Below are positions 1-6,463 of a stretch of DNA of 6,463 nt, piece by piece (position 1 is the first letter of the stretch; each line of letters opens with the position of its first letter). Source of the stretch: a virus (Duplodnaviria > Heunggongvirae > Uroviricota > Caudoviricetes); the IMG/VR virus record IMGVR_UViG_2740892046_000005; one strand, written 5' to 3'. Below the pieces are notes generated by a model. It did no database searches. It was not told the origin of the DNA and saw only the letters and a program-made list of their open reading frames with translations. The translations under genes were made by a program, and so were the position numbers.

Positions 1-197
1 TGAAGACTGGGTGATGAGTCATGTTCGCTGCTTCCAGTGGTTGGGTGGCGTTCCTGAACTTGTTGTTCCGGACATGATCAGACATGAGATAAATGAAGGG
101 GGATCCGTGAGATAAATAACGAATTGGAGTGGGTTAACATGGGTTCTGGTGAACAGAACTGAAATTCTTTTCCGCTATACGATAGATAAGTCGGGCA

Positions 198-227
198 TTG
201 AAATCATCCTTCCTGGCAACTTAGAAT
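198..227 (+). promoter_or_regulatory. Candidate sigma70 promoter: TTGAAA (198-203), 18-bp spacer, TAGAAT (222-227)
   Basis: Both hexamers are 5/6 matches to consensus with acceptable spacing, in an AT-rich (~43% GC) stretch about 45 bp upstream of the 271 ATG. Motif match only; no experimental support. Confidence 0.3.
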
Positions 228-270
228 CGAGTTTGCTGAAACATGACCCGTAACAAAAAGGATGATTCCA

Positions 271-432
271 ATGACTACTCAAAACAATAAGCATGACAGC
301 CTGGATTACTCAGAAAAGCCCAAAAGCAAGCACATTGTGACGTTCGAGCGCGATTCCGGTAGAAAAGGAGAATCGTCTTCCTCTGCCAATAAAACCACTA
401 TGCCGGCAGCTCCTGCTCCAGGGAAAAAATAA
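271..432 (+). CDS. Hypothetical small hydrophilic protein (53 aa), convergent with the membrane protein gene
   Basis: ATG at 271 preceded by AAGGA at 9-nt spacing; TAA stop at 430-432; translation MTTQNNKHDSLDYSEKPKSKHIVTFERDSGRKGESSSSANKTTMPAAPAPGKK. Below the length cutoff of the supplied ORF track. Short, low-complexity and with no recognised homology, so it may be spurious. Confidence 0.3.
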   Translation: MTTQNNKHDSLDYSEKPKSKHIVTFERDSGRKGESSSSANKTTMPAAPAPGKK

Positions 433-435
433 ACA

Positions 436-1068
436 TCATTCATCGTTCGTTGCACGAACGCGCCTGATCTCCACTCTGGCAATCTGATCTGCTGGAATAT
501 AGGTTGCCAGAGCTCCCCAGTACTTATCAACCACGCCTTTATACTCTTCCCATTCGTTACTTCCTGAAGGGCTGCTGTGCGTGACGTAAAGAACCATATC
601 GCCTTTATTTCCCAGGGTAAACGGACCGTTAGGCCACTCTTCAAAGTTCCCTGGCAGCCGTGACATCATACCGGAACCATCGCGAAGAATCACTCTGACC
701 TCGGTGACGCTGAAGCCTGTTTGATCAAACATTGCCTGCCATGCTGAGCTGGTATTGTCAGACCATGAAATATCATTATTCCACAGTAATCTGTACATCC
801 ATTTGCGACCGTACCTGCGCCACCACGCACCGCATGTAACGGCACACAGAAGTGCTGGGGGGGTTGCCAGCCAGGCATTCAGACCTGCCCACATAACAGC
901 CTGGTAAGCCATCATTGCTGTCAGGCCAAAAATCAGCGAAGAAAAAGTCACCTCAATGGGTTTGTGGTGATCCTTCAGCCCCACATTCGCAATAAAATAC
1001 CCAATATAGCCACTGGTCAGGGTCACCAGTGTTGCCCATGGCAGATTTAATAACGAAACGTCAAACAT
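436..1068 (-). CDS. Hypothetical membrane protein, 211 aa: three predicted N-terminal transmembrane helices plus a ~110-aa soluble C-terminal domain
   Basis: Track ORF 436..1146 begins at a TTG; the internal ATG at 1068 has a GGGAGA Shine-Dalgarno 5 nt upstream, so MFDVSLLNLPWATLV... is the preferred start. Hydrophobic segments LPWATLVTLTSGYIGYFIANVGL, IEVTFSSLIFGLTAMMAYQAVMWAGL and LATPPALLCAVTCGAWW. GC is lower (~48%) than the early operon (~55-57%). No family recognised. Confidence 0.75.
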   Translation of the reverse strand: MFDVSLLNLPWATLVTLTSGYIGYFIANVGLKDHHKPIEVTFSSLIFGLTAMMAYQAVMWAGLNAWLATPPALLCAVTCGAWWRRYGRKWMYRLLWNNDISWSDNTSSAWQAMFDQTGFSVTEVRVILRDGSGMMSRLPGNFEEWPNGPFTLGNKGDMVLYVTHSSPSGSNEWEEYKGVVDKYWGALATYIPADQIARVEIRRVRATNDE

Positions 1069-1082
1069 ATTTTCTCCCTGCA

Positions 1083-1137
1083 TCCTGAATATTACATAGA
1101 GAGCATAAAAAAAGCACGGTAAAGGGTCTACCGTGCT
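1083..1137 (-). promoter_or_regulatory. Candidate activator-dependent (Mu Pm-like) promoter: 9-bp dyad centred near 1125, T-tract, -10-like TAATAT (1094..1089), no clear -35
   Basis: On the minus strand the -10-like hexamer starts about 31 nt downstream of the dyad centre and about 20 nt upstream of the 1068 ATG. This matches my recollection of the Mu middle promoter, where Mor binds a dyad centred near -43.5 and there is no -35 hexamer. Inference only. Confidence 0.3.
1106..1137 (-). terminator. Rho-independent terminator downstream of mor (stem AGCACGGTA / TACCGTGCT, 7-nt loop, then TTTTTTAT)
   Basis: Perfect 9-bp inverted repeat at 1113-1121 and 1129-1137. On the minus strand it is followed directly by six T residues then AT. 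It lies 45 nt after the mor stop codon. Confidence 0.6.
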
Positions 1138-1182
1138 CTTATACAATAAGGAGATTTTTGAAAGGACTTTAACAAGCAGGAA

Positions 1183-1581
1183 TTATCTGGATTTGTTAAC
1201 GTCTTTCGTCTCCTCTGGCAGATCTTCATCAAACAACCTGCCCTGCATCCGATCCAGTTCTTCTTTTCTGACCCGCTTAACCACGCTGTAGACCCACTGA
1301 AGCGAAACACCAAACTTGCGGGCCAGTTCGTGGTGGTTGCGTCCGTTAAACTCCCTGAAGATTTCCCGGTCGCGCTGACTGACCTTCCATACCATGCCCA
1401 TCGGGAAATAAACGTTTTGCCCGCCCCAGACCTGCATCATTCGGTTCGCGACGGCCTGACCAATCTGGTCGGCAATTGCGGGCTCAATATCAATAATCTC
1501 GCGAACGGTCTCAGAGGTATGCTGTGCCAGCTCCACCAGGAGTTCCGGCCCTTTACTTCGAAACTGATTCAGGTCGCTCAT
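1183..1581 (-). CDS. mor: Mor/C-family transcriptional activator (Mu middle operon regulator-like), 132 aa
   Basis: ATG at 1581 with GGGAG 7 nt upstream. C-terminal region GGQNVYFP...EFNGRNHHELARKFGVSLQWVYSVVKRVR matches the Mu Mor pattern as I remember it (GGGQVYIP...DFNGRNVSELTTRYGVTFNTVYKAIRRMR). Sits directly after the gemA-like gene as in Mu. Confidence 0.85.
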   Translation of the reverse strand: MSDLNQFRSKGPELLVELAQHTSETVREIIDIEPAIADQIGQAVANRMMQVWGGQNVYFPMGMVWKVSQRDREIFREFNGRNHHELARKFGVSLQWVYSVVKRVRKEELDRMQGRLFDEDLPEETKDVNKSR

Positions 1582-2005
1582 GTTTGACTCCCGCAGCTCT
1601 GCGCTGCCACTTCTTCAGTTTCTCAATAACACTGCTTGCCTGTTCAGTACTGAGCCAGCGCAGGGCGCTGATGCCCGTTTCCCGCTTGATCCACCGCGCT
1701 AATGCATTTTCTGAACGGTCACGAACAATGCCGGCAGCAGCCATTTCAAGCCATAGCGCACGGATTTTCCTGGACTGCGGATGGTTATCCAGCGGTAAAC
1801 CGGAGCTGGCTTTTCCGGCAGGCTTAACGCGAAAGCCTTTCCTTTTCATGGATTCCAGCACGCAGTTTAGTTGTGTGGTATCCATTCCTTTGGTTGAGGC
1901 TTTACCGGTCAGCCCCTGTAACATCTGGCGGTAGGTGTCTTCATCCATACCCAGTTCATTACGGGCAATATGAATGAGCTGGATAAGACGTTGTTTAGTC
2001 ATCAT
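1553..2005 (-). CDS. gemA: GemA/gp16-like protein (DUF1018 family), 150 aa
   Basis: Preferred start is the ATGATG at 2005..2000 with AGGAG 5 nt upstream; the track's upstream ATG at 2044 lacks a Shine-Dalgarno. N-terminal LIQLIHIARNELGMDEDTYRQMLQGLTGK matches the conserved GemA N-terminal signature as I recall it. Overlaps the mor start by 29 nt. Confidence 0.75.
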   Translation of the reverse strand: MMTKQRLIQLIHIARNELGMDEDTYRQMLQGLTGKASTKGMDTTQLNCVLESMKRKGFRVKPAGKASSGLPLDNHPQSRKIRALWLEMAAAGIVRDRSENALARWIKRETGISALRWLSTEQASSVIEKLKKWQRRAAGVKHERPESVSK

Positions 2006-2210
2006 CGTTGCTCCTTTTACCTGCGCCACCGATATAATCGACATATAAAGGAAGCGCCACAGGCCAGCACAGGAACATCACCGACCAGCTAATCCAGTAG
2101 CCAGCACCACTGTAACGTGAATAAAACCCTGAACGGCGGTGCAGTTCAGCAGTACACCAACCGACAAAACAATACCAGAACAGGGCACATACAACAGATT
2201 CAGCCGTCAT
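1995..2210 (-). CDS. Hypothetical small membrane protein, 71 aa, two predicted transmembrane helices
   Basis: ATG at 2210 with a G-rich stretch upstream; translation MTAESVVCALFWYCFVGWCTAELHRRSGFYSRYSGAGYWISWSVMFLCWPVALPLYVDYIGGAGKRSNDDD. Its TAA stop overlaps the gemA ATGATG start and its own start overlaps the upstream 76-aa ORF stop. The track's 123-aa version starts at a TTG inside the upstream gene. Confidence 0.4.
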   Translation of the reverse strand: MTAESVVCALFWYCFVGWCTAELHRRSGFYSRYSGAGYWISWSVMFLCWPVALPLYVDYIGGAGKRSNDDD

Positions 2211-2430
2211 TCTGAATATCCCCCCAACTGATATGAATATTACGGGCAGCAATGACAGGGTCGTTATTCCACCATGCACCTGACATGTATTTTTCAACCT
2301 GTTCGCGTCCGGCAATAACACCAATTGTGATCCCCGGCCTGACGTTCTTAAAAAAGGCGCGGGCAAAAAGGTATCTGGCAGATATTCGGCAGGCTTTTAA
2401 TTTCCGGCTTTTACCTGATAGCGTAATCAT
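2200..2430 (-). CDS. Hypothetical basic protein, 76 aa
   Basis: ATG at 2430 overlaps the upstream stop as ATGA; GGAGG lies 4 nt upstream. No recognised homology. Confidence 0.5.
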   Translation of the reverse strand: MITLSGKSRKLKACRISARYLFARAFFKNVRPGITIGVIAGREQVEKYMSGAWWNNDPVIAARNIHISWGDIQNDG

Positions 2431-3110
2431 CTGGCCTCCAGTTTCTGTTGTTCCTGCCCACTGACCGGGCGGTGCAGTCTGACGTTCTGCCCTTCAAGAA
2501 ACCCCGCATAGCGCGAGGCGTCGCCATTGCGGCTTCTTCCCGGTTTACGCGCCCTGGTGGTTTGCGTCTGCGGGTATTTATGTTCCAGCCACTGCTGCAT
2601 CAGTTCACGTTCGTCATCGGTCAGGGCGAAGGACTGTATTTCACTGATAACGGCCAGCACCCAGCCTTCAGCAAACTGGTCACCACGGCTGGTACGGGTG
2701 GCAGTTTTTATTCTTTTGTTCTGTGCGCTGATATATTGCTGACGCGCCTTTTTCAGCTGGCGGGCCAGCACTTCCCAGGTGTACGCAGCCAGTGCAGCCC
2801 GTTCCCGGTTGCCGTAGAACCCCACACCCGGATATGTGCCGGGGTGAATGATGGAGTTAACACCAAATGCCTCGCGGATGATGTTCATCAGGCCCAGCAT
2901 GTAGCGCGGTGGACGGAGGCTGCCTGTCGGCCAGTAGTGACTGATGGTTTCATCAATATCACTCATGGCGATGTCGGAATGTGTGATGCCGTGAACATCC
3001 ATCAGTTTACGGGCACGGCGCAGTGCCAGAGCGGCCTCGTGAGGGTTGCCGGATGCGGCCAGCGCCAGCAACTTTTTCAGTTTCTCAATGTGTTTATCCT
3101 GGTCTGTCAT
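2427..3110 (-). CDS. DUF2786-like phage protein, 227 aa
   Basis: ATG at 3110 overlaps the MazG-like stop as ATGA; GGAG upstream. N-terminal IEKLKKLLALAASGNPHEAALALRRARKLMDVHGI resembles the DUF2786 signature recalled from phage and plasmid proteins. Function unknown. Confidence 0.75.
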   Translation of the reverse strand: MTDQDKHIEKLKKLLALAASGNPHEAALALRRARKLMDVHGITHSDIAMSDIDETISHYWPTGSLRPPRYMLGLMNIIREAFGVNSIIHPGTYPGVGFYGNRERAALAAYTWEVLARQLKKARQQYISAQNKRIKTATRTSRGDQFAEGWVLAVISEIQSFALTDDERELMQQWLEHKYPQTQTTRARKPGRSRNGDASRYAGFLEGQNVRLHRPVSGQEQQKLEAR

Positions 3111-3412
3111 TGTTCAGTATCTCCGGTGTACATGACGCCCAGCCGTGCGGCAAGGCGTTCCAGTTTTTTCTGTTTGTGGAAGTCAATCAGCCGGTCCATT
3201 CCCTGAAGGCGCAGCTGCTCTGTCATGATTTCCACGTCTGCCAGCTCTGCCGCGAGGTCACTTTCGCTGCCCTGTCCGTTCAGGTTGCGGGCGGCACTGG
3301 CCGCCAGTTCAGCGGCCTCTTCTGTCAGTTTCAGGGCCTGTGCGTCCGGCCCGAAACGCTGCAGGGCCAGACGGTAGAGGGCGGTGCGGGTGAGTTCGGT
3401 GTTCCGTGTCAT
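3107..3412 (-). CDS. MazG-like all-alpha nucleoside triphosphate pyrophosphohydrolase, 101 aa (putative)
   Basis: ATG at 3412. Contains the paired acidic motifs EEAAE and ELAD separated by about 19 residues, as in the MazG/HisE family EExxE...ExxD signature, and is the size of small phage MazG-like proteins. Motif-level call only. Confidence 0.7.
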   Translation of the reverse strand: MTRNTELTRTALYRLALQRFGPDAQALKLTEEAAELAASAARNLNGQGSESDLAAELADVEIMTEQLRLQGMDRLIDFHKQKKLERLAARLGVMYTGDTEQ

Positions 3413-3421
3413 GCCGCGCCC

Positions 3422-3694
3422 TCAGTGTTTCCGGTCGACGGTGATGTGCAGGCCGCCTTCTGCAGTGGTTTCCATCCGGTACGGCACCTCATGCTCTGCC
3501 GTGTGGGTGAGTGTGTTCATCAGTACCTGCAGGGCAGCCTCCTTTCCGTTGGTCGCCACAATGGCCTGTGTGGCCATGCTGATTAGCGCCGTCAGGACGT
3601 GCTTCACATCGGTGAGGTCGCGGCATTCACACTCGTTGACATAGTGTTCAACAAGGGTTCGGGTGCGCTGTCGTGCTTCCTGTGGGGTAATCAT
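3422..3694 (-). CDS. Hypothetical protein, 90 aa
   Basis: ATG at 3694 overlaps the zinc-ribbon gene stop as ATGA; GGAGG 7 nt upstream. No recognised homology. Confidence 0.65.
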   Translation of the reverse strand: MITPQEARQRTRTLVEHYVNECECRDLTDVKHVLTALISMATQAIVATNGKEAALQVLMNTLTHTAEHEVPYRMETTAEGGLHITVDRKH

Positions 3695-3885
3695 TGCGCG
3701 TCCTCCCTGTCAGGGCGGGAGAATTCCATGACGGGCACGTCCGCCGAAAAATGCTGGCTGCAGTACGGGCAGACCAGGGTGACACGTACTGCAGGTATGT
3801 GATACTTACCGGACATCACGGCGATGGCGCTGTGAAAACGCAGGGCTGTTATATCCCTCTCGCACTGAATACATTTAAATATCAT
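3691..3885 (-). CDS. Small zinc-ribbon protein (CxxC...CxxC), 64 aa
   Basis: ATG at 3885 with GAGGAG 9 nt upstream. Cys pairs at residues 5/8 (CIQC) and 39/42 (CPYC). First gene after the only sizeable intergenic gap in the operon. Confidence 0.65.
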   Translation of the reverse strand: MIFKCIQCERDITALRFHSAIAVMSGKYHIPAVRVTLVCPYCSQHFSADVPVMEFSRPDREDAQ

Positions 3886-3905
3886 AATTTAATTCTCCTC
3901 TGTTT

Positions 3906-3938
3906 CCGGCGTGCAGAAGCCCACGGCGCTGACGCCGG
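3906..3938. other. GC-rich inverted repeat (CCGGCGT ... ACGCCGG, 19-nt spacer) beside a ~45-bp AT-rich tract (3939-3982), between gam and the zinc-ribbon gene
   Basis: 7-bp arms seen directly. No U-tract follows on either strand, so it is not a classical terminator. Possible internal regulatory or RNA-processing element. Confidence 0.25.
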
Positions 3939-3982
3939 AATAAAAAAGAAAATGTTTTTATTAAATAATTAACGTGGTGTGT

Positions 3983-4513
3983 TTACTGCACATCCTGCTC
4001 AAAAGGAATTATTGAAAAATCCTCAATGTCGCTTTTAATGGAAATACCGGGAATATTTTTCACGGCCTCTTTTTCATTCAGAATGGCATCTTTATTTATT
4101 TCCTCCTTTACACGAATAAAGCGCTCAAGCCCCAGACGTCTCAGCAGTTCAATGACATTATCCGCCCCGCGAATGCTGACTGACGGCGGACGGTTTCGCC
4201 ACTGCACCTCGCCGGTGGTGAGGTTAGCGAACTTCACCTTCCCGTTGCCGGTCAGTTCATCACGGTGCGCCTCACACCATGTCTGGATACCGGACTGCAG
4301 TTCGGCCATGCGTTTTTTCAGGCTCTCGGTGAGCGGGGCATAACGTGCAGTGATGTCGCCAATGGTGTCATTCATTTCTGTTTCAGCCCTGACCAGTTCA
4401 CGTTGCGCGTCACCAAGCAGTCTGATTCCCTCAATGACCTCTTCGCGTGTCCCCGGCACCCAGAGTGCTGCTGCGGCTTTGATACGTTTTGCCCCTTTTG
4501 TACTTTTTGCCAT
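3983..4513 (-). CDS. gam: Gam-like host-nuclease inhibitor / DNA end-binding protein (Mu Gam family), 176 aa
   Basis: ATG at 4513 with AGGAGG 9 nt upstream. Extended similarity to Mu Gam as I recall it, for example ETEMND, WCEA(H/N)RDELT, GKVK(F/T)ANL, PPSVSIRG, LGL(E/Q)RFIR, EINK(D/E)AIL and the C-terminal IEDFSIIPFEQ. Confidence 0.9.
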   Translation of the reverse strand: MAKSTKGAKRIKAAAALWVPGTREEVIEGIRLLGDAQRELVRAETEMNDTIGDITARYAPLTESLKKRMAELQSGIQTWCEAHRDELTGNGKVKFANLTTGEVQWRNRPPSVSIRGADNVIELLRRLGLERFIRVKEEINKDAILNEKEAVKNIPGISIKSDIEDFSIIPFEQDVQ

Positions 4514-4540
4514 ATTTTATGACTCCTCCTGTTGTGCTGA

Positions 4541-4810
4541 TTACCACAAAGATTCCGGCCACACGACGCGACAGCCGTGCAGTTCGAAAACGCCCTGACG
4601 GAAATATCCCCTGTGGTCATGTCCGGTATACAGATAACAGGCCTTTCCCTGCTCAAGCATGCGCATGCAATGCGCACTCCGGGAAACGCGGATGACAGGT
4701 TTGTTACCCCTGATGGTGATGCTTTGTACATCCGTGTTCGTCGCCTTAAGCGCCATAATGGCTGACTGCACTTTGCTGATTTGCTGGTTGATACCTGTGG
4801 TGGATTTCAT
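4541..4810 (-). CDS. Hypothetical Cys/His-containing protein, 89 aa, immediately downstream of B (position of kil in Mu)
   Basis: ATG at 4810 lies 2 nt after the B-like TAA stop, suggesting translational coupling, with a weak GGGG Shine-Dalgarno. No recognised homology; the kil analogy is by position only. Confidence 0.55.
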   Translation of the reverse strand: MKSTTGINQQISKVQSAIMALKATNTDVQSITIRGNKPVIRVSRSAHCMRMLEQGKACYLYTGHDHRGYFRQGVFELHGCRVVWPESLW

Positions 4811-4812
4811 TA

Positions 4813-5979
4813 TTAAACCCCTTTGACAACGTCAGCGTTGACCTGTGGAACCCCGATTTCAGCGGCCAGATTCATGGCGGCTATCACCAGGTTACTGACG
4901 GCCAGCGGATACAGCAGGCTGACCATATTTTTACGATGACTTCCCGGATTGCTCAGGCGGGCACGTATGGCATCCACTGCGCTGGCGTCCATAATGTCCG
5001 TCAGTTGTTTACCGGCCCGTTGCAGTTTGAACGTCAGAAATTCTTCAAGGTTATTGTCCAGAGGCAGAAGTTCGACCACCTCACAACGCTGAACGACTTC
5101 ACGGACTTCCATATTGCGTTCAGACAGTTTTGTCGCCAGTTCCGGCTGGCCAATCAGCACGATGGACAGCAGTTTTTTGAAACCGGACTCCAGCTCAAAA
5201 AAGCGTTTGAGGTGTTTCAGTGTCGGAATGGGCAGACTGTGGGCCTCCTCAATCACCAAAACGTGGCTGAACCCCGCCTGGCTGCTGTCTTTCAGGACGC
5301 GATGCAACTGGCGAAAGCGGGCGTCCTGACTGCGTCTGATGCTTTCCAGTGGTGCGATGGTACTGATAATGGCTTCGGCAATCGCTGCTGCCTTCAGGGT
5401 TTTCCCTTTCACATCGTTGTCTTCCATAGCGATGATGTATGGCTCGATAACAATTACCGGCGCATTCTCGCGGTTGATACGTTCAGTCAGGTCGCGGCGC
5501 AGCGTGGATTTACCCGCACCGGACTCACCGATGACGGCCATAAACCCACCATGACGGGCTGTCTGGTACAACGCCTCACGCACGTAGCGAATGTCCGGGG
5601 TGGTGAACACATCATCAGAACCCTGCATGGCTTCATCGGCGAACGGGTCACGGAAAAGACCAAACGCTTTTTTGGTTGCTGGAAATAACACCTGTTTTTT
5701 GAGTAACATATTCTCTTCCTCACTGAGGCTCGTTTTATCTGTGGTACCCGCTGTACGGGGCGTGGCTGCGCCCTGTACAGCATCAAAACTCTTCGTTGTA
5801 TCAATCCCCTGACTTTCCAGCCAGGACGCAAGACGCCGGCGCACTTCTCCGGGGCTGGTGCGGGGCCACGCGTTATGATTCACAATCTGGGCCAGCGTGG
5901 CCTCAGAAACATCGACAGCTCTCGCCACCACCGCCTGTGGGATACGGGCCTCTTTCAGTTGCTGCTTCAGTACCAGCAT
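4813..5979 (-). CDS. B: Mu B-like DNA transposition ATPase (AAA+ with N-terminal HTH), 388 aa
   Basis: Preferred start is the ATG at 5979 with GAGGAGG 5 nt upstream. Walker A GESGAGKST and Walker B-like HVLVIEEAH; N-terminal HTH-like IPQAVVARAVDVSEATLAQIV. Lies directly downstream of the transposase-like gene as in Mu and Tni-type elements. Confidence 0.85.
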   Translation of the reverse strand: MLVLKQQLKEARIPQAVVARAVDVSEATLAQIVNHNAWPRTSPGEVRRRLASWLESQGIDTTKSFDAVQGAATPRTAGTTDKTSLSEEENMLLKKQVLFPATKKAFGLFRDPFADEAMQGSDDVFTTPDIRYVREALYQTARHGGFMAVIGESGAGKSTLRRDLTERINRENAPVIVIEPYIIAMEDNDVKGKTLKAAAIAEAIISTIAPLESIRRSQDARFRQLHRVLKDSSQAGFSHVLVIEEAHSLPIPTLKHLKRFFELESGFKKLLSIVLIGQPELATKLSERNMEVREVVQRCEVVELLPLDNNLEEFLTFKLQRAGKQLTDIMDASAVDAIRARLSNPGSHRKNMVSLLYPLAVSNLVIAAMNLAAEIGVPQVNADVVKGV

Positions 5980-5989
5980 GTTTTCCTCC

Positions 5990-6463
5990 TCAGTTGCCGT
6001 TAACAATGCTGATAACACTGCTGCGTGCCGGCGTGGTCAGCGTGGCCATGACTTCATCCAGTGCAGCTTCCGGTACGCCGTCCGGGTACTGTGCCGTTAA
6101 CTGGCGGTAATGTTCCGGCGTCCAGGTAAGGCCGTCGGCGCTGAACTTATCGCGCAGGGCTTTCGCGGCCTCCACATGAGTCATGGGACGTTGTTCAGTG
6201 CGCGGCCCGCGTACGTCAGAGGCCTGACCACGCTTCGGCATATAGGCCGGAAGTGTGGTGTCGTCGATATGTTTATACGGGTCAAGCCGCCCGCCGAACG
6301 GCAGCGCCTTCGCCTTGCGTGCGGCAGCTGCATCTGCGGCGTTGTCTGTACCGGTGACCAGCGCTTCGGTTTCTTTTGCCGCCATCTGCGCCGGGGTTTC
6401 CGGCAGGGCTTTGTAACTTTCGCCAAATACCGCCGCGCCTTCAGCAAAGCCAAACTCGTTCTT
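5990..6463 (-). CDS. C-terminal portion of a transposase A-like protein (5' end beyond the window)
   Basis: The frame is open from the window edge to the TGA at 5992..5990, and that stop sits inside the Shine-Dalgarno of the B-like gene. Assignment rests on synteny (A then B) in a Mu-like context, not on recognised motifs. Confidence 0.55.
   Translation of the reverse strand, partial: KNEFGFAEGAAVFGESYKALPETPAQMAAKETEALVTGTDNAADAAAARKAKALPFGGRLDPYKHIDDTTLPAYMPKRGQASDVRGPRTEQRPMTHVEAAKALRDKFSADGLTWTPEHYRQLTAQYPDGVPEAALDEVMATLTTPARSSVISIVNGN

Follow-up and report, generated by a model that had tools for sequence, protein, structure and literature searches.

Operon anatomy, protein families and mosaic distribution of six small genes between gam and gemA in a BcepMu-like transposable prophage

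The six genes and their operon

We analyzed a stretch of 6,463 nucleotides of viral DNA (Caudoviricetes; IMG/VR record IMGVR_UViG_2740892046_000005; the whole stretch is called the window below) and, in particular, the six small genes that lie between gam and gemA (the cassette). A sequence-only reading had described them as six open reading frames (ORFs) chained by ATGA or stop/start overlaps, each with its own Shine-Dalgarno (SD) sequence, and had proposed them as a candidate host-takeover or anti-defense cassette. All six are encoded on the minus strand. ORF1 (3691-3885) encodes a 64-amino acid (aa) protein with a zinc-ribbon pattern (CxxC...CPxC), ORF2 (3422-3694) an acidic 90-aa protein, and ORF3 (3107-3412) a 101-aa putative MazG-like all-alpha nucleoside triphosphate (NTP) pyrophosphohydrolase. 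ORF4 (2427-3110) encodes a basic 227-aa protein with DUF2786 and DUF7168 domains, ORF5 (2200-2430) a basic 76-aa protein with an isoelectric point (pI) of 10.4, and ORF6 (1995-2210) an aromatic-rich 71-aa protein with two hydrophobic segments and an acidic tail.

The sizes, coordinates, SD sequences and overlaps given by the sequence-only reading were correct, except at one junction. ATGA overlaps were read from the sequence at the ORF1/2, ORF3/4 and ORF4/5 junctions, and 11-nt overlaps were found at ORF5/6 and ORF6/gemA. However, ORF2 and ORF3 are separated by a 9-nt gap. SD-like purine motifs (GAGGAG, GGGAGGA, GAGGG, GGAG, GGAGG and GGGGGGA) are located 5-10 nt before each start. ORF6 starts at an internal ATG (position 2210) within a longer ORF that begins with TTG, and the likely start of gemA is the ATG at position 2005, which is preceded by AAGGAG. 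The prophage of Escherichia coli KK19-02 is 100% identical to bases 74-6463 of the window. Its RefSeq annotation agrees for all six ORFs, has the same start for ORF6, and gives the same 450-nt gemA gene.

Across the coding strand, 99.5% of the sequence lies in ORFs of 60 aa or longer. In contrast, the coverage in 1000 dinucleotide-preserving shuffles was 48.5% on average (standard deviation, 15.8%) and 90.7% at maximum. Each of the six ORFs matched a PHROG family along practically its whole length (E 5e-15 to 9e-76). The ratio of nonsynonymous to synonymous substitution rates (dN/dS) against diverged homologues was 0.09-0.25 for ORF1, ORF3, ORF4, ORF5 and ORF6, and the values for gam and gemA were similar. 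These ratios indicate that the five genes are under purifying selection.

The upstream neighbor of the cassette is gam (3983-4513, minus strand; Pfam Phage_Mu_Gam, E 1.9e-40), the product of which, a host-nuclease inhibitor, is 61% identical to Mu Gam. The downstream neighbors, on the same strand, are gemA (1553-2005, in an ORF that extends to 2044; Pfam GemA, E 1.3e-40) and mor (1183-1581; Pfam Mor, E 1.1e-43). A strong intrinsic terminator, consisting of a 14-pair stem followed by a T-run, is located after mor (1110-1140, minus strand). A consensus scan of the coding strand detected no sigma-70-like promoter and no convincing terminator inside the cassette, and a single early transcript that ends at the terminator after mor is likely. 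An Rfam scan of the window with E values up to 1 detected no RNA family.

All substantial genes in the ORF listing of the window are on the minus strand. Upstream of gam, the window contains the gene for the ExeA/AAA-type B protein (4813-5982, minus strand) and the C-terminal end of the transposase (5990-6385, minus strand). The phage had been described as Mu-like, with Mu and D108 as comparators. This description had to be changed. Because the transposase is of the Tn552-like rve type, the B protein is ExeA-like and the early operon runs leftwards to the genome end, the phage is of the BcepMu type. The window represents the early arm of such a BcepMu-like transposable prophage and not of one of the Mu or D108 type. 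In the RefSeq annotation of the KK19-02 prophage, the gene order is a DNA-binding protein, a helix-turn-helix protein, a hypothetical protein, the rve-type transposase, the ExeA-family B protein, an 89-aa protein, Gam, the six ORFs, gp16/GemA, Mor and a terminal 210-aa gene, after which the phage ends. The hypothetical gene upstream of the transposase corresponds to DUF3102 in a sister prophage. The Escherichia phage PhiKM, which is classed in Bcepmuvirus, has 97% DNA identity over 78% of the window and possesses the cassette.

Properties of the encoded proteins

ORF1 is a member of phrog_3401 (E 1.2e-40). The four cysteine residues of the proposed zinc ribbon (C5, C8, C39 and C42), as well as P40 and Q44, are invariant in 10 divergent homologues with 21-50% identity, in agreement with the zinc-ribbon call. 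The gene is present in at least 18 related loci, including the minimal early regions of Photorhabdus, and its dN/dS is 0.04-0.20. ORF1 scored below the cut-offs of the named zinc-finger families (Sgf11, the best Pfam match, 19.2 versus 26.4 bits; YnfU, 14 versus 27 bits), and in a profile comparison with the Cys-rich Mu gp13 only the CPxC knuckle aligned. A Rosetta-stone link to the fusion of a zinc ribbon with a "host nuclease inhibitor" in Dickeya-type loci was rejected because, here too, only the CPxC knuckle aligned. The most supportable assignment is that the zinc ribbon of ORF1 would bind another protein or nucleic acid. In the PhiKM record (L001 in our set of loci), an opposite-strand ORF (5750-5971) is annotated where ORF1 lies. 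This annotation looks like an error, since the family conservation and the dN/dS favor the minus-strand ORF1.

ORF2 (phrog_3691, E 6.9e-56) and ORF5 (phrog_3681, E 2.1e-54) gave no informative match in Pfam, PHROG, NCBIfam and PADLOC, and no Pfam or NCBIfam match of ORF2 exceeded the cut-off. Among the 47 loci described in the next section, ORF2 was found in one other species only (L016, 50% identity). This distant homologue is at synonymous saturation, and the dN/dS (omega) within E. coli was 0.16-0.64 on 3-11 substitutions. ORF2 is thus the least secure of the six as a gene. ORF5 was found in few relatives only (L009, L012, L013, KP12 and JCH8249), with a dN/dS of 0.13-0.25 against homologues that are 67-76% identical. 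The most supportable description of ORF2 and ORF5 is that they encode lineage-restricted proteins.

ORF6 (phrog_6436, E 5.2e-15) is present in at least 15 loci and has a dN/dS of 0.09-0.25. Residues 5-23 and 38-56 form two aromatic hydrophobic segments (Wimley-White octanol values, -5.8 and -14.2 kcal/mol, respectively), with a basic loop between them and an acidic tail. As judged from the hydrophobicity of these segments, the earlier call of a two-helix membrane protein is plausible, and ORF6 is a likely two-segment inner-membrane hairpin. A second ORF6 allele, with only 41% identity, was found in E. coli prophages such as PhiKM, in which the remaining sequence is about 97% identical. The divergent allele is the commoner one in E. 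coli and belongs to the same PHROG family (window 1995-2171 compared with L001 3782-3988).

ORF3 matched phrog_2245, "nucleoside triphosphate pyrophosphohydrolase" (E 3.8e-34), and has the same name in RefSeq. It contains E31-E32-x-x-E35, followed after 20 residues by E56-x-x-D59. This arrangement fits EExxE(12-28)ExxD, which we take to be the metal-binding motif of the MazG family. Across 68 representatives of the ORF3 family, E31 never varies, and the conservation of E32, E35, E56 and D59 is 90% or higher. The AlphaFold2 model, with a predicted local distance difference test score (pLDDT) of 94.9, is compact and all-helical. Its best structural matches are MazG/HisE enzymes, and it is superposable on solved structures of these. 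As compared with Sulfolobus MazG (1VMG) and the integron iMazG (2Q5Z), ORF3 has the same fold and an intact EExxE...ExxD motif, but its scores are below the curated cut-offs. Of the 68 relatives, 13 matched Pfam MazG at E ≤0.01. Profiles of the family searched against the PDB at first gave no match and later gave only weak MazG-like chains (E 0.03-0.16). PDB sequence searches with ORF3 and ORF4 gave chance matches only (T4 lysozyme and IWS1). Based on its fold and motif, and with scores below the Pfam cut-off, ORF3 is filed in the MazG-like all-alpha NTP pyrophosphohydrolase superfamily, as the sequence-only reading had proposed.

An exhaustive search for ORF3 relatives yielded 1605 cluster representatives, most of which are 90-100 aa. 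The distant relatives are mostly on contigs shorter than 2 kb, and one is in another BcepMu-like prophage. In cultured phages the subfamily is rare, with four records only. A domain-fusion scan of longer relatives found no informative partner domains. Other phage MazG enzymes act on deoxynucleoside triphosphates (dNTPs). The most supportable assignment for ORF3 is an active pyrophosphohydrolase, which would act on non-canonical dNTPs or on a regulatory or alarm nucleotide such as guanosine penta- or tetraphosphate, (p)ppGpp. Atd1, a MazG-like protein of the Pectobacterium phage PcCB7V, is reported to lower (p)ppGpp levels by depletion and to shield cells against the toxicity of TIR-STING or retron-TIR (bioRxiv 10.1101/2022.06.09.495361). 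Both Atd1 and ORF3 are phage MazG-like proteins; they are likened by description only.

ORF4 exceeded the Pfam cut-offs for both DUF2786 (43.0 versus 23.9 bits) and DUF7168 (91.5 versus 25.5 bits), and the earlier DUF2786 call was therefore right. The hallmark residues N22, E25, A29 and L36 are invariant in 33 homologues. In the predicted structure (pLDDT 86.8; predicted template modeling score 0.77), an N-terminal helical hairpin is followed by a strand-helix-strand-strand-helix core and basic helices. The core resembles a type-I KH domain. However, a single helix lies between its first two strands, the alignment has no conserved GXXG (the loop at 58-68 keeps only P68), and a Foldseek search with the model found nothing below E 0.3. 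Because of the Foldseek result and the absence of a conserved GXXG, we treat the KH likeness as a lead only and not as membership. ORF4 is strongly basic, with a pI of 9.9 and a net charge of +10, and it probably binds nucleic acid. Literature searches on the function of DUF2786, DUF7168 and DUF3164 gave incidental mentions only.

ORF4 is the most widely retained accessory gene across the related loci. True Mu-type prophages of Aeromonas and Shewanella have homologues at the corresponding relative position, and one homologue is in a lambdoid-like early region of Komagataeibacter. Proteins of SPI-7/PAPI-1-type integrative and conjugative elements (ICEs) and of conjugative plasmids have the same two Pfam domains and length as ORF4, with 29-39% identity, and share its basic central helices and C-terminal "LH...G" tail. 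In the SPI-7-type ICE core, the homologue directly follows parA-dnaB-parB, and its neighbors include dnaB, parB, topoisomerase III and a replication protein. The gene settings differ: the ICE homologue is in the backbone, whereas ORF4 is in a phage early operon between the MazG-like gene and small ORFs. Homologues were also found on 285 plasmids, of which 229 are conjugative and 213 are from Acinetobacter; on pCAR1, the homologue is downstream of mobI.

Other proteins occupy the place of ORF4 in some prophages. In a Symbiopectobacterium prophage (L009, 9608-10270), the place is taken by a 220-aa protein that has no overall similarity to ORF4 but ends in the same C-terminal tail, LLHQPVNGQEQWKLGAK. 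The tail, which is also conserved in the ICE and plasmid homologues, may be a partner-binding motif or a recombination joint. In L021 and L024, a 132-152-aa protein fills the slot after the MazG-like gene. Its N-terminal part is a CxxC...CPxC zinc ribbon, and the C-terminal part gave a match to phrog_1518, "host nuclease inhibitor" (E 6.8e-18).

Mosaicism of the interval between B and gemA

To compare the interval, the B protein was used for a scan with one genome per species, and 48 loci were obtained from Enterobacterales, Pasteurellaceae, Neisseriales and others, 47 of which have mor. In the 47 loci, the length of the interval from B to gemA varied from nothing to about 4 kb; in several loci, mor follows B almost directly. 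Each of the six ORFs was present or absent independently of the others. When present, they keep their relative order: zinc ribbon, MazG-like protein, DUF2786 protein, small membrane protein and GemA. The sequence-only reading had placed an accessory early region between gam and gemA, and had named conserved core genes without variability across related prophages as the outcome that would speak against it. The outcome was variability. The dispensability of the genes is suggested by this comparison.

In loci where B, GemA and Mor are 86-97% identical to those of the window, the identities of ORF1, ORF3 and ORF4 are only 55%, 75% and 65%, respectively, and Gam is replaced by DUF3164. The central part of the region has thus been exchanged. 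In relatives, the interval also contains DUF3164, HU, SSB, RdgC, DUF5420 and the "host nuclease inhibitor" PHROG protein. The slot after the 89-aa gene downstream of B contains Gam in 11 loci and DUF3164 in 22 loci, and never both (47 prophages, L007-L054). Since they share a slot and do not co-occur, DUF3164, which corresponds to BcepMu gp05, may be a functional alternative to Gam.

The early region of transposable phages is long and poorly conserved and encodes small uncharacterized proteins (PMC8705779). The semi-essential early (SEE) region of Mu (kil, gp6-9, gam, gp11-15, gemA and mor) has the same position as the cassette, downstream of the transposition genes and with gam and gemA/mor as brackets. 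Both consist of small genes that are packed tightly and differ from one relative to the next, and the cassette, like the Mu region, would be dispensable. The layout differs from that of Mu in that the cassette phage has a Tn552-type transposase, an ExeA-like B protein and an early operon that extends to the genome end, as in BcepMu. BcepMu (gp01-gp08) shares the orientation and the genome-end position with the window, and its B, GemA and Mor are 59%, 45% and 56% identical, respectively. However, between B and gemA this cultured phage has gp07, the pyrophosphatase gp06, DUF3164, HU and SSB, and it possesses neither gam nor any of the six ORFs. BLASTP of the six ORFs against Mu gp5-20 and BcepMu gp1-13 detected no homology (best E about 0.3), and profile comparisons (hhalign) to Mu gp11, gp12 and gp13 were negative. 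Thus, none of the cassette proteins resembles Mu gp5-15 or BcepMu gp3-7. We also considered ORF3 as a homologue of the "pyrophosphatase" gp06 of BcepMu. No relationship was detectable, and the two are at most analogous.

Among 5426 complete E. coli genomes, the cassette was found in 640 (about 12%) with 95-100% identity, including sequence type 131 (ST131) strains such as EC958. Three forms were distinguished, the counts of which are approximate because they were read from identity bands. The six-gene form, which is that of the window, is in roughly 80 genomes. The seven-gene form is in roughly 520 genomes, including EC958, and has an extra gene for a 71-aa single-pass membrane protein (phrog_3958) between ORF3 and ORF4. 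The eight-gene form, in 6 genomes, has a further 127-aa gene (phrog_18739). A Pfam scan of these extra genes found no match. In the cassette, PhiKM differs from the window by one extra 71-aa membrane gene and by the ORF6 allele. The window carries a minority form in E. coli. The last 6 codons of ORF3 (TGDTEQ) derive from the deleted downstream 71-aa gene. Because these codons belong to the missing gene, the window is a deletion derivative, in which the ends were joined at microhomology of a few bases. The insertion slot between ORF3 and ORF4 corresponds to window 3107-3124, L003 6033-6263 and L058 2613-3204.

The intergenic leader between gam and ORF1 (3886-3982, minus strand) contains an AT-rich stretch, a U-rich tract, a GC hairpin (3906-3938, CCGGCGU...ACGCCGG) and the SD sequence of ORF1 (GAGGAG, 3895-3900). 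About 50 nt of it, which comprise the U-rich tract and the hairpin, are nearly invariant in 11 loci of other genera, although the upstream gene there is DUF3164 instead of gam and ORF1 is only 55% identical. In L007-L017 and L022, the element directly precedes the ORF1 homologue, and it is single copy per locus. At the base of the stem, one compensatory change from C-G to U-A was found. The predicted fold of the leader has an energy of -29.5 kcal/mol (z = -3.4), and none of 200 shuffles folded as well. In its outer stem, the U-tract is paired with the ORF1 SD sequence. The element lies exactly at the boundary of module exchange. It may serve to control translation, be a processing site or mark a boundary of recombination. 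An intrinsic terminator was considered and rejected, because, on the coding strand, the U-run precedes the stem on its 5' side, and neither strand has a U-run after the stem.

Possible functions of the segment

The sequence-only reading had treated the cassette as one unit. Our results do not agree with this: the six genes are a mosaic with an insertion slot between ORF3 and ORF4. Since the genes are present or absent independently, and since none of them resembles Mu gp6-15 or BcepMu gp3-7, we regard the segment as a mosaic accessory segment and not as one co-functional system. On balance, it is probably the distal, accessory "semi-essential early" part of the early operon, a mosaic whose small genes can be exchanged one by one. 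The cassette would be transcribed together with the regulatory genes, the transposase gene, B and gam, in a transcript that ends after mor. Translation would pass from gene to gene via the overlapping stop/start codons. By this translational coupling, the early products would be made in fixed ratios, and each would act separately. While replicative transposition proceeds, the small genes would condition both the cell and the phage's DNA and nucleotide metabolism.

Several observations weigh against this interpretation. ORF3 scored below the curated cut-offs of PRA-PH in Pfam (14.9 versus 21.3 bits) and of the hisI domain in NCBIfam (14.4 versus 42.7 bits). The cassette is 95-100% conserved within E. 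coli and is thus not freely variable on short time scales. In addition, the constant gene order and the tight coupling could reflect a functional interplay of neighbors.

The cassette may instead be a dedicated anti-defense island, in which most or all of the six early proteins neutralize host immunity, with an Atd1-like ORF3 and with ORF1, ORF2, ORF4 and ORF5 blocking defense proteins. We consider this possible but rather doubtful. The early position beside gam, which protects DNA ends, is consistent with such an island, as are the mosaic presence and absence of the genes, the insertion slot and the two ORF6 alleles in near-identical phages. Atd1 is the sole specific precedent. The protein with the "host nuclease inhibitor" PHROG match in the same slot of Dickeya and Symbiopectobacterium prophages, and the occurrence of ORF4 homologues on conjugative plasmids among many small hypothetical genes, also point in this direction. 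However, the protein family libraries gave only PHROG families of "unknown function" for five of the six ORFs and the NTP pyrophosphohydrolase family for ORF3. In these general family scans, with no search aimed at anti-defense hidden Markov models, no likeness to a characterized anti-defense protein was found. A PADLOC scan of the six ORFs gave only a chance JetC fragment in ORF5 (E 0.025). The main text of a survey preprint of 268 anti-defense proteins contains no MazG, DUF2786 or DUF7168. In the ICE core, the ORF4 homologue is syntenic with dnaB, parB and a replication protein, and this is the backbone, not cargo. The dN/dS values of about 0.1-0.25 are like those of gam and gemA, with no sign of positive selection, and the substrate of ORF3 could be dNTPs. 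The anti-defense label is a hypothesis and not a finding. DNA handling and host conditioning, as in the mosaic that we favor, fit the DNA-metabolism occupants of the interval and the dnaB/parB synteny in ICEs at least as well.

Alternatively, the six genes may be helpers of replication and transposition, analogous to Mu arm, lig and sot, in which ORF3 cleans the nucleotide pool and ORF4 binds DNA. The genes lie between B/gam and gemA in the operon of the transposition genes, and HU, SSB, RdgC and DUF3164 occupy the same interval in relatives. ORF4 also fits this explanation, because it is basic with a KH-like core, is retained more widely than any other accessory gene, Mu-type prophages included, and has a homologue beside dnaB, parB and topoisomerase III in ICEs. 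However, many related prophages and BcepMu are without some or all of the six genes, no homology to proteins with a known replication role was detected, and ORF1, ORF2, ORF5 and ORF6 have no features that point to DNA transactions. We therefore judge this explanation unlikely. It is very improbable that some of the small ORFs, ORF2 above all, are non-functional frames kept by chance or by neighboring constraint: the single distant ORF2 homologue in 47 loci, its omega of up to 0.64 on few substitutions and the opposite-strand ORF in the PhiKM record would be consistent with this, but all six ORFs have full-length PHROG matches, the ORF coverage exceeds that of all 1000 shuffles, dN/dS is at most 0.25 at high divergence for the other five ORFs, and every start has an SD sequence and a coupled junction.

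Within the accessory mosaic, the distribution of ORF4 raises a further idea. Since unrelated mobile elements all place DUF2786+DUF7168 among their first-expressed or replication genes, the protein might be a general "establishment" factor, that is, a basic, KH-like binder of nucleic acid that protects or processes the DNA of the element as it enters or replicates, or blocks a widespread host barrier, with the MazG-like neighbor removing an alarm nucleotide. This idea is speculative, and we consider it improbable; it nevertheless deserves attention, as the family is large and widespread and has no annotation.

On present evidence, the region is an ordinary case of the variable early segment found in transposable phages, which is of a known kind. 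Four of the six cassette proteins have no known or predicted function, and ORF4 belongs to domain-of-unknown-function families only. The substrate of ORF3 would distinguish the feeding of replication from the silencing of an alarm nucleotide. As phages, ICEs and conjugative plasmids share DUF2786/DUF7168, a single functional finding would provide an annotation for a very large family.

Finally, the phage end is within the window. Bases 1-74 are 100% identical to an istA fragment of ISEc12 (IS21 family), and the prophage ends at about base 75. Thus, the prophage of the source genome sits inside a copy of this insertion sequence. The identical KK19-02 prophage adjoins cheA. Beyond the terminator after mor, the phage end (262-1146) has a gene for a 210-aa protein (436-1068, minus strand; phrog_12870) and a small plus-strand ORF (262-432). 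The 210-aa protein had no match in Pfam, NCBIfam or PADLOC. Bases 75-1222 of the window are missing from PhiKM and most E. coli relatives, which have other genes there. The position of the 210-aa gene is typical of a prophage-expressed moron.

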